From a virus: a stretch of 64,000 nucleotides of DNA. The position numbers and the translations under genes are program-made. Below, in pieces: positions 1 through 10,171 of the stretch (its first letter is position 1; each line of letters starts with the position of its first letter). The notes under the pieces are model-generated. The model was not told where the DNA came from, ran no database searches, and saw only the letters and a program-made list of their open reading frames with translations. The stretch lies in the UHGV virus genome UHGV-0311442, one strand, 5' to 3'.

Positions 1-298
1 CGTTCTGCTTAAAGCCGGTGTCATTATCCCCTAAAACTATGGAGTTCCCACCTAAAGCATTGGCGGTTCCAATACCCAATGCTCCATTCAATTGACCGCC
101 AGATAATGGCAACGCCCCAACGTCGGCAGCAGTTGGCTTGTTTCTCGTATTGTACACGCGACGCCAACCTGGTGAGTAAGTATCGCCGTTAAATACGTAG
201 ATAAACTCCGCATTAGTGAGTGCGCCGGAGACGCTCGTCGTTGTGGCGGTCGTTATACGGATCGTGTAGTTGTTTGTGCTATTGCCATTACTAATCAC
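1..298 (-). CDS. Second tail-fibre gene, N-terminal part only (continues past window start); no ATG, so GTG start at 298-296 coupled to the upstream stop, or frameshift fusion
   Basis: Minus-strand frame open from stop at 319-317 to the window edge; translation ...NGDTYSPGWRRVYNTRNKPTAADVGALPLSGGQLNGALGIGTANALGG... resembles the conserved N-terminal motif of phage tail fibres; different frame from 291..3863. Confidence 0.45.
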   Translation of the reverse strand, partial: MISNGNSTNNYTIRITTATTTSVSGALTNAEFIYVFNGDTYSPGWRRVYNTRNKPTAADVGALPLSGGQLNGALGIGTANALGGNSIVLGDNDTGFKQN

Positions 299-3200
299 TT
301 CTATAACGGCCCCAGCTAACGGAATAGCCCCCACAACCCGTCTCGCTGTGTGGTATGTGCGCACTAGCGGCATAAGCCCATGCACAGCGAGCAACCCACG
401 ATCTTGTGGTAAATGCGCCGTTATTTTTCAATAACGTCACTAGCTGTGCTGTAGTTATTGCAGCGCCATCAGCGCCAGTTTCTAACCAACCACTAGGTGA
501 TGCCGGGCAACCTATATCGGCAGGCCCTAACGATATATTTCTAGTGCCGTCAAATGCGATACCGTTAATGGTACGAGCTGTCTGCAACTTTGTGGCCGTG
601 GCTGCGTTTCCGGTAGTCGACTGATTACCAGTCTGGTTTACACCAGGTAAACTGATGTCTTTAGTACCATCAAAAGCCACACCGCCTATATTTCGCGCAG
701 TCTGAAGTTTAGTCGCTGTCGCAGCATTACCTGACGTATTCTGGTTACCGGCTTGGTTAACCCCCGGTAAATTGATATCCCCAGTACCGTCAAAGGTAAC
801 GCCACCTATTCTTCGAGCGGTTTTCAGTTTCGTCGCGGTAGCGGCATTGCCGGTAGTATCTTGATTACCTGTGGCATTTACGCCAGGAATGCTGTCACGG
901 GCAGTATAAACTTGTGCCCAATCTGACCACGGTGCATCGTTAGTGTCTCGACGACTACGAATATAAACTGGCGCGTGCGCACCGCTCGTGCCAGACCAAC
1001 CGATTAACAGTTCACCTTCACCCACTGCGGTAGAGCCACCCAAATGCAGCAAGTTACCATAAGCGGTCGGATAACCGTTATTGTAAACTTCGTACATCTG
1101 AATACCGGGTGTACCTTTGTTTGAACCGGATAGAGCAGTAACCCGACCACGGCCCACCAGGGTGTTGATATTGATGTCAGCAGAACCATCGAATCTCACG
1201 CCGTTAATATTTCTGGCAGTTTGAAGTTTAGTGGCTGTACCAGCATTACCCGTGGTGTTTTGATTACCCTGTTGGTTAACACCTGGGAGGTTAACGTCGC
1301 CGCTACCATCGAAGGCGACCCCACCAATTCTACGCGCCGTCTTTAATTTAGTGGCGGTTGAAGCGTTGCCTGTTAACTCACCTGCTAACCCTTTTGCAAA
1401 GGTCTGTTTTTCTGCCCAGGTGTGCGAAGCGCTCAATACAGGCATCTGCCGTGGAGTAATAGTACGGTTACCTGGATTACCCGCAAGGCGAACAGCAAAG
1501 AATCGATAGTTGGCGGTAGACACTGTACTACGCCAAACCAACATACTCCGACCTGAGGATGCGCCATCTGATGGACCAACCAGAATGCTAACTAAGTTAC
1601 CGTCAATAACACCCCAATCCATTCCCGCAGGAATGTTTTTCATGGTGTTAAGTGGTGTACAGATTAACTCGCCCGGTTTAAAGTCATAGGTTTGCCAGTC
1701 TAAAGGATCAACATTCGCGCGTTCACCGCCGATACCTAATACCAACGGAAGCGAATACGATGTGAAAACCTCACGCCAGTCACTCCAAGCGTTACCCGTA
1801 CGGATACGTTGGAATTTACGACCTTTAGTTTCTGCACCCGTACCGTATGTAGTATAATTCTGTTCGACCCCTGTACCGTCTAAGCGTAAGGTAACTTCAC
1901 AAACGCCTAATATGGTTTCGCCAGAAGAACCGGTAAGTGGGCCGTTAGTTGCCTCACCAGTAACACTGAAACGACCCGGTTTAACGAGATCGTTAAAATT
2001 GGCTTTAAAGAAAGCACCGTCAGTCTGATAACCAACCTGAATCCAATCTTCCCATTGTGGGTTTGATGAATCCCACGTTGCAGTCAAACCACGGACATAC
2101 ATTGTACCACGACGCGTAGTGTATCGCTGCAACCGTCCGAAAAGACCACCTTCCATTACTTCTAGTACGCCTTGCGCACCACCACCTTCTTCAGGGTAAT
2201 GTCTGCTAAACACAGCCAGCGAACTGCTTGAGTTTCGCCAGTTACCCATATGCTCAGCGCCACCCAGAGAGTTCAAGTCTATAGAGGTAGATAACGGACG
2301 TACACCAGTAGTTACCATTCTCCACGGTGACCAGGGTCCATTGGCACCATTCCACGCACCTGACAACATACGGTTGTACACGTTACCATTACGACAGGTA
2401 AAACGTTGCGCACCGCTATAATTACCGGCTTTATACACTTCCAGATAACCGACCGCACCGTCTTCTGGGAAGTGTTTTGCCATCGACGCATTGGTTGATG
2501 TCGACTTAGCCCACGTTCCTGTGTAATTGGCATCTGGAGCAAATGTGTTAATATCAGCATCTACAGGCATTTCGCCACGGAAACGCAGATAGGTATCAGG
2601 AGATAGGCCGATGTTTCGAGCAAAAGTTTCTTTATCTGGGATATCAGCGCCGTTAGAGTTTTTCTGTAACGCACCATTCGCTTTATCTACGGTGGTTCTT
2701 AATCCCAAGAAATTGATGATATCCGCAGTTGACCCTTTCGCTAACAAGGATCTGGCCGTTTCTGTAAAATCCGTTAATCCGACATTATTACTGCCGGTGA
2801 AATACATGAGTTTGTTTGCCGCTGTGGTGACTGCGGCAATAGCGGTGAGTAACGGACTGAGAGGTTGTTTCTGCGCAAGCTCCTCAGTAATCGTTGTTGC
2901 GAAGTTAGGGTCATTACCTAACGCCTCAGCTAATTCCGCTAAGGTATTTAGCGTCTCGGGTGAAGAACCAACCAATTCCGCGATTGCGTCACGCACCCAG
3001 GACGTTGTGGAGATACTCGTGTCGTTCGAGTCCTTCGGCGGTTTTGGGGATGTCGGCTTACCCGTAAAATTCGGCGAATGTTTATTGGCTTTTAACTGTA
3101 ATTCGTCGTTCAGCTGTTTAACCGTGGACGGTGTGGCGGCCTCAGTCACAGATTCGCTAGTCAGTGTATTGTTAAGTTTAACAATGCCTTTACCGGTTGT

Positions 3201-3863
3201 AGTAGCGTCAACTAAACCCTGTGCAGCGATTTTCTCCGCACGTAGGGCGGCTGATTCCGATCGCGTTGCTGCACCTTCTGAACTTTCCTTATCTTTCGTG
3301 ACCTGTGCAGCAATCTTCTCCACTGCGCCTTTACTGGCCTCAACTGAAGCCGCAGTATTTTCAACGCTGGTAGCCGTCTGTTGAACTTGTCCGGCCTGTT
3401 GCGTAACCGTTTCTGCTTTCTTAGTTACATCAGCCGCTGCAGCCGTCACCGATTGTTCGCTTGTAGCGATAGCTTGAGCTTTCTCATTTACCGACTGTAA
3501 TACACTATCTACGGCAGTTTTCGCGGCTAAAACTTCAGCGTGTTTTTTGCTAACCTCAGCAGTTTTAGTGGCAACGGTTCCCGCTTGCTCGCTAACTGTG
3601 GAAGCTAACGTGTCAGTTTGTTGCTTCGCTGTTTCTGCTAAGTCTTTTGCTTGTGTGGCTTCTGTTGCAGACTGTTGCGATTTGGCCGCCGCCGTTTGTG
3701 CGTCAGCAACCGCGTTTCTGACGGTGTCAATATCCGCAACAATCTCGCGGACAGGTAACTGATAATCCCTTTCGTCTTTCGAAAAAAGTAAAACGCCTTC
3801 ACCGATATCCCCGGTGTATGGACGTAAATCGTGTAAACGAATTTTCTTTACCGCTTTAGCCAT
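291..3863 (-). CDS. Long tail fibre protein (1190 aa)
   Basis: N-terminal Ala/Thr/Gln-rich coiled coil; conserved fibre motifs HSPNFTGKPTSP and TLNTLAELAEALGNDPNFATT; C-terminal tandem 39-aa repeats (TGNAATATKLQTARxIxGVxFDGTxDIxLPGVNQxGNQ). Confidence 0.9.
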   Translation of the reverse strand: MAKAVKKIRLHDLRPYTGDIGEGVLLFSKDERDYQLPVREIVADIDTVRNAVADAQTAAAKSQQSATEATQAKDLAETAKQQTDTLASTVSEQAGTVATKTAEVSKKHAEVLAAKTAVDSVLQSVNEKAQAIATSEQSVTAAAADVTKKAETVTQQAGQVQQTATSVENTAASVEASKGAVEKIAAQVTKDKESSEGAATRSESAALRAEKIAAQGLVDATTTGKGIVKLNNTLTSESVTEAATPSTVKQLNDELQLKANKHSPNFTGKPTSPKPPKDSNDTSISTTSWVRDAIAELVGSSPETLNTLAELAEALGNDPNFATTITEELAQKQPLSPLLTAIAAVTTAANKLMYFTGSNNVGLTDFTETARSLLAKGSTADIINFLGLRTTVDKANGALQKNSNGADIPDKETFARNIGLSPDTYLRFRGEMPVDADINTFAPDANYTGTWAKSTSTNASMAKHFPEDGAVGYLEVYKAGNYSGAQRFTCRNGNVYNRMLSGAWNGANGPWSPWRMVTTGVRPLSTSIDLNSLGGAEHMGNWRNSSSSLAVFSRHYPEEGGGAQGVLEVMEGGLFGRLQRYTTRRGTMYVRGLTATWDSSNPQWEDWIQVGYQTDGAFFKANFNDLVKPGRFSVTGEATNGPLTGSSGETILGVCEVTLRLDGTGVEQNYTTYGTGAETKGRKFQRIRTGNAWSDWREVFTSYSLPLVLGIGGERANVDPLDWQTYDFKPGELICTPLNTMKNIPAGMDWGVIDGNLVSILVGPSDGASSGRSMLVWRSTVSTANYRFFAVRLAGNPGNRTITPRQMPVLSASHTWAEKQTFAKGLAGELTGNASTATKLKTARRIGGVAFDGSGDVNLPGVNQQGNQNTTGNAGTATKLQTARNINGVRFDGSADININTLVGRGRVTALSGSNKGTPGIQMYEVYNNGYPTAYGNLLHLGGSTAVGEGELLIGWSGTSGAHAPVYIRSRRDTNDAPWSDWAQVYTARDSIPGVNATGNQDTTGNAATATKLKTARRIGGVTFDGTGDINLPGVNQAGNQNTSGNAATATKLQTARNIGGVAFDGTKDISLPGVNQTGNQSTTGNAATATKLQTARTINGIAFDGTRNISLGPADIGCPASPSGWLETGADGAAITTAQLVTLLKNNGAFTTRSWVARCAWAYAASAHIPHSETGCGGYSVSWGRYRSD
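528..893 (-). repeat. Tandem 117-nt (39-aa) tail-fibre repeats, block 2 (3 copies)
   Basis: Three near-identical units encoding NQxTTGNAATATKLxTARxIGGVxFDGTxDIxLPGV. Confidence 0.8.
1158..1364 (-). repeat. Tail-fibre repeats, block 1 (about 2 copies)
   Basis: Same 39-aa unit, about 88 aa upstream of block 2. Confidence 0.7.
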
Positions 3864-4065
3864 GATATTTAATTCTCTATCGGGAGCTAAAAGATCTGAG
3901 GAAGTGTTTTACCCCTCAACATTTTTATAAGCGGATTATTATACTGGTTTTAATCCATCATCTTCTAACGTGAAAGTGATGCCCAACTCCGCGCTTCATG
4001 ATTTGGGATTTTTAAGTTTTGATAAAAGTTTGCTTTGGCCTCCATTACCGGTAAAACGGTCAAGT

Positions 4066-4512
4066 TCATGTAGCCGGGTTTTCTTCAGCTGTGTCGTCAT
4101 CTGGAACCTCAAAGGTAAGAACGGCATCATCACCAATACAGAAGATCGCATCATCTTCGTTTGCTAATGCTCGTTCTGTTGTATCGAATAACGTCACCAT
4201 AAACGCATTCATCCACGCAGGAGAATCGTCAGCAACGTTAACAGCAATGGGTTCGTTACCTAAGGTGATATCTGCAGCACGTAAATCTTCGGGTTGTAAG
4301 TTCGTTCCGCAGAATTCATTTACAACACCTAAAATGTCACGAAGGTTGTCTTCAGTACCGTCTAACGAAATCAAAATAGGTTCAGACGCTAACACTTCGT
4401 CCGCATCCAAACGGTCGTAATAAACAACCACAGAAGCACCATCAGGTTTCCTGATTTTTGTAATCTCTGTCAGTGTGTTACGACGCGAAGTGGTCGGGGA
4501 CGGGTTTGCCAT
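4066..4512 (-). CDS. Hypothetical acidic protein (148 aa); start trimmed to ATG at 4512
   Basis: The listed ORF start at 4671 sits inside the terminator hairpin of the upstream gene; internal Met chosen; acidic C-terminus. Confidence 0.5.
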   Translation of the reverse strand: MANPSPTTSRRNTLTEITKIRKPDGASVVVYYDRLDADEVLASEPILISLDGTEDNLRDILGVVNEFCGTNLQPEDLRAADITLGNEPIAVNVADDSPAWMNAFMVTLFDTTERALANEDDAIFCIGDDAVLTFEVPDDDTAEENPAT

Positions 4513-4640: not shown

Positions 4641-4688
4641 TCAAAAAAAAATAAAAACACCTACCGCCCATAGAATCGGGCGGTAGGC
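4641..4688 (-). terminator. Rho-independent terminator
   Basis: 10-bp stem CCTACCGCCC/GGGCGGTAGG followed on the minus strand by a T-run of about 17 nt; 27 nt after the stop of 4714..5088. Confidence 0.8.
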
Positions 4689-10117: not shown

Positions 10118-10171
10118 TTAAGCTGTTCCTCAATTAATTTTTGTTTACGTGTGCATAATTAGACACGAAAG

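Follow-up and report, generated by a model that had tools for sequence, protein, structure and literature searches.

The window that we analyzed, which is a stretch of 64,000 nucleotides from the virus genome UHGV-0311442, begins with what appear to be two tail fiber genes on the minus strand. As judged by comparison with homologous loci, the "second fiber gene" belongs to one long tail fiber gene, whose 3' part is out of frame because of one extra G in a run of G's. We think that the extra G is, on balance, a genuine insertion that arose very recently in this phage genome by strand slippage and that truncates the fiber. Whether it arose by mutation or in base calling, a one-base frameshift in a fiber gene is commonplace and has precedents; it is no novel arrangement of genes, and the mechanistic questions that it poses are not new. 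For annotation, the two open reading frames (ORFs) should be described as one frameshifted fiber gene (either a pseudogene or a sequence error), rather than as a pair of genes or a gene that starts in an unusual way.

Two reading frames, one fiber gene

The long fiber ORF runs from 3863 to 291 on the minus strand, encodes 1,190 amino acids, and ends with the stop codon TAG at 293-291 (ORF listing), as the initial annotation reported. A second minus-strand frame, which encodes ...ADVGALPLSGGQLNGALGIGTANALGG..., is open down to base 1, also as reported. It had been described as opening at 316, just 8 codons before the stop of the long ORF. Instead, it opens at 427, after a stop codon at 430-428, and the TAG at 318-316 is in neither of these frames but in the third. 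Because the second frame is open from 427 and not from 316, the overlap of the two open frames extends over 427..294, which is about 45 codons rather than 8. Possible start codons in the second frame are an ATG (373-371), a first GTG (334-332), and a second GTG (298-296); the earlier observation that it lacks any ATG from 316 down to 1, and that a GTG is available at 298-296, was correct.

When the two frames were compared to phage records with tblastn, the frame of the long ORF matched both the P1-like genome MH422554 and phage Cyrano up to ...HSETGCG, where the matches in this frame end, and the second frame matched the same two phages starting at ...VGAIPLAGAVIEV. These two matches lie end to end and in frame with each other in MH422554, where they are part of a single annotated tail fiber gene. 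The window can be divided accordingly, with all of the parts on the minus strand. The 5' part of the tail fiber gene, in its native frame, is at 330..3863 and includes codons 1-1178, from the ATG at 3863-3861 to Gly1178 (GGG at 332-330). It ends in the run GGGGG at 328..332 (CCCCC on the plus strand), which has a one-base insertion relative to the GGGG of relatives and is the point of the frameshift. Past this point, the long ORF has an out-of-frame tail at 291..329, with 12 aberrant codons at 329..294 (GYSVSWGRYRSD) followed by the TAG at 293-291. The 3' continuation of the gene is in the shifted frame at 2..328, which holds codons 1179-1287 of the repaired gene (AIPLAGAVIEV...GDNDTGFKQN) and reaches the window edge. 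The rest of the shifted frame, at 333..427 (KITAHLPQDRGLLAVHGLMPLVRTYHTARRVV), is open but noncoding: it has no homology, and matches of homologs in the second frame begin only at query residue 32 (tblastn). The ATG at 373-371 and the GTG at 334-332 both lie in this noncoding part.

Several features that had seemed to mark a second fiber look different in light of the homologs. The last 45 or so residues of the long ORF had been called atypical, but the tail 'WVARCAWAYAASAHIPHSETGCG' is conserved in homologs; the stretch WVARCAWAYAAS...SETGCG is conserved as well, and only the last 12 residues are out of frame. The motif ADVGALPLSGG was taken for the N terminus of a fiber, but it is internal and corresponds to about residue 1258 of 1541 in the fiber of CP173450. 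The suggestion that a frameshift joins two fibers was right about the change of frame, but this change breaks one fiber gene instead of fusing two. The change had been placed around 300-330, and the actual site, 328-332, is at the edge of that range. The downstream frame is preserved beyond what chance would give, to judge from its identity to the matching part of intact fibers (across the junction-spanning module, 99% to those of L007, L010, and L014).

A single extra G breaks the frame

A megablast search with positions 1-4000 of the window found no match among phage records, and the exact junction pattern was absent from the genome contigs and viral contigs that we searched. Scanning metagenome contigs for the junction pattern led to L007, which is 95.9% identical to the window over 13.5 kb, and to L008. 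L010, L012-L014, and L018-L027 were found via exact neighboring proteins, and L002 is a 222-kb record from Enterobacter ludwigii.

When the window was aligned to L002, L003, and L004 at the nucleotide level, each alignment contained exactly one 1-nt gap, and it was in GGGGG at 332..328. This run is also the sole gap relative to L007, L008, L009, L010, and L014. Four of these (L007, L008, L010, and L014) have GGGG, and the tens of bases that flank it on both sides are the same as in the window. Across the relatives, the site is G4, GGT, or GGC, and it is in frame in all of them. If one G at 328-332 is deleted, then the window has an uninterrupted 1,287 codons to its edge. Thus, an indel at a defined site, with a length that is not a multiple of 3, accounts for the frame break.

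The initial annotation proposed a comparison with homologous fiber loci, and all 12 loci that contain the module read through the junction in one frame. In 12 of 12, T-G-C-G-[A/V/I]-I-P-L-A-G is encoded in a single frame (codon table), and a 140-amino-acid query for the module had a single in-frame match at each locus. The window alone splits this module, with residues 1-71 in one frame and residues 65-140 in another. The fibers of the relatives are single ORFs of 1,477-1,559 amino acids. Two apparent exceptions were rejected: L009 seemed to have a second split fiber, but the apparent split is an N-gap in the scaffold, and L025 seemed to have an uncalled fiber, but its gene is intact and is merely missing from the gene index. 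With these exceptions dissolved, there is no sign of recurrent disruption of the fiber in this family.

The end of the gene lies beyond the window, but it is represented by P0015, a protein of 343 amino acids from a Logan assembly, whose start was called at GTG 334-332 by the gene caller. The first 111 residues of P0015 are the same as the window's second frame, except for the initiator Met (residues 3-111 correspond to 2..328), and P0015 continues for 232 more residues, up to a Peptidase_S74 domain (PF13884). P0015 is an exact continuation of the frame in the window, and the domain itself is beyond the window. Joining the 1,178 native residues to 341 residues from P0015 gives a repaired gene of 1,519 amino acids. 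So, as the initial annotation had envisaged among the outcomes that would speak against its reading, removing an indel (one G at 328-332) restores a single frame. The repaired fiber aligns without gaps to the 1,519-amino-acid fibers of L010 and L014 (96.7% and 97.2%, respectively). The native-frame part by itself matches the fibers of L010 and L014 at 96.6%, and it matches residues 1-1136 of the CP173450 fiber at 79%, in one frame.

Profiles for protein families also cross the junction. PHROG 3299 and 6722 (E about 1e-100) each span it in one stretch, as does the structure of the phage Mu fiber (PDB 8ju3, E = 3e-29). Therefore, the break is within a domain and not at a boundary between genes or domains. 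Elsewhere in the fiber, Pfam Phage_fiber_2 matches residues 221-261, and in the fiber of L008, PF13884 is found at the C terminus (E = 1.3e-13).

Real mutation or sequence error?

We favor a real mutation because the G5 allele is also found in a separate Logan assembly and because the 64 kb contain no other gene with a broken frame. First, the exact 1,190-amino-acid product (P0123) and P0015 are recorded on one Logan contig of 40,711 bp (cluster member listing). Only the GTG at 334-332 of the G5 allele could supply the initiator Met of P0015, so this contig carries G5. Other exact matches to the window's proteins are on Logan contigs of 13,576 and 125,033 bp, which implies that the Logan assembly is different from the contiguous 64-kb window. 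Second, of the 83 proteins of CP173450, 70 have a homolog in the window (by tblastn), and all of these except for the fiber align in one frame, nearly all of them at full length. When compared to L007, G5 is the only frame-breaking indel within coding sequence in 13.5 kb. We infer that the extra G is present in the DNA rather than in the reads only. The mutation would be recent because the 341 downstream codons have not decayed: no other lesion is found in them, and their identity to intact relatives is 97-99%.

It is possible, but less probable, that the fifth G is a homopolymer miscall, that is, that this is a sequencing or consensus error and that the phage itself has GGGG, with an unbroken fiber gene of 1,519 codons. 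The lesion is a one-base change in the length of a homopolymer; the four closest relatives have G4 and are identical around the site; and the downstream frame is perfectly kept. (Undecayed codons fit an error just as well as they fit a recent mutation.) Also, the G5 allele was found in one sample only, among the 40 members listed of a 60-member cluster at 90%; the other nonpartial members among those 40 have 1,480-1,559 amino acids. The Logan contig may come from the same reads, so it is perhaps not independent with respect to the chemistry, and a homopolymer miscall would give this same picture if both assemblies were built from one read set. On the other hand, none of the other 22 runs of five or more G's or C's in the 64 kb breaks a gene, and neither does any other homopolymer. 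Every other shared gene has a single-frame alignment to its homolog from CP173450, and G5 was reproduced by a second assembler. Finally, a run of 5 bases is short for a systematic indel error on short-read platforms, if such a platform was used here.

Predicted effect on the fiber

If the mutation is real, then a slipped-strand insertion that lengthened G4 to G5 would shift the frame after Gly1178. Translation would read 12 wrong codons and would then stop at the TAG at 293-291. The remaining 341 codons, of which 109 are inside the window, would be left in the +1 frame without a start codon of their own. The predicted product, of about 125 kDa and ending with ...GCGGYSVSWGRYRSD, would retain its N-terminal region along with most of the shaft and would end in the middle of the Mu-S-like domain. 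It would lack the distal shaft and the tip, as well as the C-terminal intramolecular chaperone (Peptidase_S74). We infer that the truncated protein is nonfunctional. In T5 pb1, Peptidase_S74 forms a trimeric intramolecular chaperone (PMC4690869). Full-length relatives of the window's fiber, and P0015, share a C-terminal Peptidase_S74 with T5 pb1 and with endosialidase-type fibers. However, the shaft and tip modules are unrelated to those of T5 pb1, and the S74 domain that belongs to the window's gene is beyond base 1, in a different frame from the beginning of the gene.

A real G5 allele would probably be a null or crippled allele of the fiber, comparable to its closest precedent, the frameshift in stf of laboratory phage lambda. 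A passage in PMC12617516 (citing Hendrix & Duda 1992) states that the stf frameshift blocks the synthesis of side fibers and that the gene is intact in Ur-lambda. In both lambda PaPa stf and the window, a frameshift breaks a long fiber gene, the relatives have one ORF, and the downstream piece lacks its own start; as with lambda PaPa stf, the two same-strand ORFs of the window are together colinear with the single fiber ORF of relatives. In contrast to the window, lambda is a temperate siphovirus with a proven lesion in a dispensable fiber, whereas the window is from a Seoul-like jumbo myovirus with a probable lesion. If the lesion is real, it would be a further case of the loss of a fiber via a single-base slip, as in laboratory lambda. 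It would also be a natural example of a truncated receptor-binding fiber, which would affect the prediction of host range and therapeutic use.

The window is from a Seoul-like jumbo phage, related to SPN3US and Asesino. Nearly identical genomes, 221-228 kb in size, occur widely among assemblies of E. coli, Enterobacter, Salmonella, and Shigella isolates, and some of these genomes are labeled as plasmids. The presence of these genomes in isolate assemblies fits with "persistent virulent phages" (bioRxiv 10.1101/2024.12.31.630880). We speculate that persistence in a host culture could relax selection on the organs of adsorption, which would make a real null allele plausible. It seems very improbable that G5 is not only real but selected. 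In that scenario, the loss of the long fiber, or its production in trace amounts by rare +1 slippage on GGG-G, might lower readsorption and killing and thereby stabilize coexistence, and G4/G5 slippage would act as a crude reversible switch. Against a real null allele, the window shows no second fiber gene at this locus, so such an allele could carry a cost if the phage is free-living.

No clear sign of a second gene, recoding, or inversion

The initial annotation proposed that the downstream frame is a separate gene that begins at GTG 298-296, with coupling between stop and start. Termination-reinitiation could in principle use either this GTG, which is 3 nt before the TAG at 293-291, or GTG 334-332, from which the gene caller did call an ORF (P0015), and the product of this second gene would keep its own S74 chaperone domain. 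But homologs already match the second frame over the 11 codons between the G run and GTG 298. The GTG at 296..298 is an internal Val codon (…AVIEVISNG…), and this Val is conserved inside the intact fibers of L002-L004, L007, and L008. The split is not conserved in any of the 12 homologous loci; the break interrupts a domain that PDB 8ju3 shows as a single chain; and the downstream fragment lacks the N-terminal region that is common to all of the fibers. We rejected ATG 373, GTG 334, and GTG 298 as restart codons because of their weak SD complementarity. Their SD energies are -2.0, -3.6, and -4.7 kcal/mol, respectively, as compared to a median of -6.1 kcal/mol for 59 real starts in the window. 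Even GTG 298 is in the bottom 19% of real starts, and both GTGs are at the level of the background of internal codons (10th percentile, -5.2 kcal/mol).

We also considered whether the frame change might be a programmed recoding site (by a +1 ribosomal slip on GGG-G or by transcriptional slippage) or whether the G run might turn the fiber on and off by phase variation. The sequence GGG GGC would let tRNA-Gly re-pair in the +1 frame, the product would then have the native ...CG-AIPLAG..., and reversion of G5 to G4 by slippage is possible in principle. A +1 recoded product from G5 DNA would span ...SETGCGAIPLAG... / ...SETGCGAIPLAGAVIEVISNGNSTNNYTIR, and the full-length protein would be about 160 kDa. 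However, the shifted arrangement is unique to the window, as the relatives are all in frame with G4, GGT, or GGC. The next codon in the 0 frame is GGC, which is neither rare nor a stop; by codon usage, it is an ordinary sense codon. The fold of the downstream RNA is not distinctive (z = -1.09). The 64-kb window has 23 runs of G or C of at least 5 bases, and none is longer than 6, so the run at 332..328 does not qualify as a hypermutable tract. Tracts at which slippage is known to occur are far longer: the poly-G tracts of receptor-binding genes in Campylobacter phages have about 9 bases or more, as compared to 5 in the window. These tracts and the +1 frameshifting of E. coli prfB do share with the window a G-rich slippery sequence at the change of frame, but unlike sites of the prfB type, the window has no stall codon, no apparent conserved stimulator (as judged from the downstream fold), and no conserved shifted state. 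We therefore rejected recoding because of nonconservation, the length of the tract, and the RNA structure. Overall, we did not detect an evolved start site, a recoding signal in the codons or the downstream fold, or a hypermutable tract at the junction. Given the upstream homology, the weak SD energies, the run counts, the fold, and the nonconservation, we consider a separate gene, recoding, and phase variation to be very unlikely, each to about the same extent.

An invertible segment of the P1/Mu shufflon type was rejected because the loci of Seoul-like relatives contain neither an invertase nor an inverted cassette: there is no 3' cassette on the opposite strand and no match to a recombinase Pfam in these loci, and the window ends before the corresponding region. 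The genes downstream of the fiber in the relatives are on the same strand and are gp38-like (Pfam GP38 and Gp38_N); gp38-like proteins act at the tip of the fiber. In contrast, the P1-like locus L003 has both: a gene for an invertase and, in the opposite orientation, an alternative 3' cassette. P1 and Mu resemble the window in that they have 3' segments of fiber genes without a start codon. Those segments are joined via inversion by Cin or Gin, whereas the discontinuity in the window is a frameshift. The junction module itself is homologous to the S-type fibers of P1 and Mu (Sc-Sv), with 79-85% amino acid identity to MH422554 and phage Cyrano. Among structures of the Mu fiber, the junction module matches 8ju3, as described above, and the distal part matches 5yvq.

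Relationship to known phages

The window (1-64000) is from a Seoul-like (SPN3US-related) jumbo phage. Its syntenic relatives are 221-228 kb in length and, where compared, about 90-98% identical to it (L001, L002, L005, L006, and L018-L027). These relatives come from isolates of E. coli, Enterobacter ludwigii, Salmonella, and Shigella, and are recorded as "plasmids" or as WGS contigs. Certain proteins from the window are found in exact form in hundreds of contigs. The spread of Seoul-like genomes among isolate assemblies fits with a preprint on "persistent virulent phages" (10.1101/2024.12.31.630880).

Possible modular evolution of the fibre locus

The module of the fibre that spans the junction (107-527, minus strand) is 79-85% identical, at the amino acid level, to the fibres of two other phages, the P1-like MH422554 and the SSU5-like Cyrano. 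The module also matches S of phage Mu (PDB 8ju3). Yet the fibre of the jumbo phage CP173450, which is otherwise closer to the window's fibre, has an unrelated module at this position. This combination suggests that virulent jumbo phages and temperate phage-plasmids have exchanged cassettes.

At the other end of the fibre, residues 1-51 are 47% identical to the N terminus of a 153-amino-acid protein from CP173450; these two N termini may be a common attachment module. Immediately upstream of the fibre, CP173450, CP134650, and L009 (a related locus) have an additional 3-kb gene for a 1001-amino-acid "phage tail protein," which is absent from the window and from its close relatives L007 and L010 (compare 3863-4066 of the window to 10831-14298 of L005).

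Downstream, which lies beyond base 1 of the window, the relatives' fibres end with a chaperone domain of the self-cleaving type (Peptidase_S74), and the next gene or pair of genes encodes Gp38_N/GP38 domains, as in T-even adhesins (L010, 15791-17144; L009, 12831-14136). An S74-ended fibre adjoining gp38-like genes seemed to be an unusual pairing. In one of the relatives, L013, a gene for a Caudo_TAP chaperone takes the place of the gp38-like genes.

Variable intergenic runs

Some intergenic A/T runs of the window differ in length from those of L007, L010, and L013: T9 and T5 runs upstream of the DUF7941 gene (about 4645-4657, minus strand) and a shorter A5 run (10138-10142). These could act as promoter or terminator elements or could merely be spacers that are prone to slippage. 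In total, the window contains six A9 runs.
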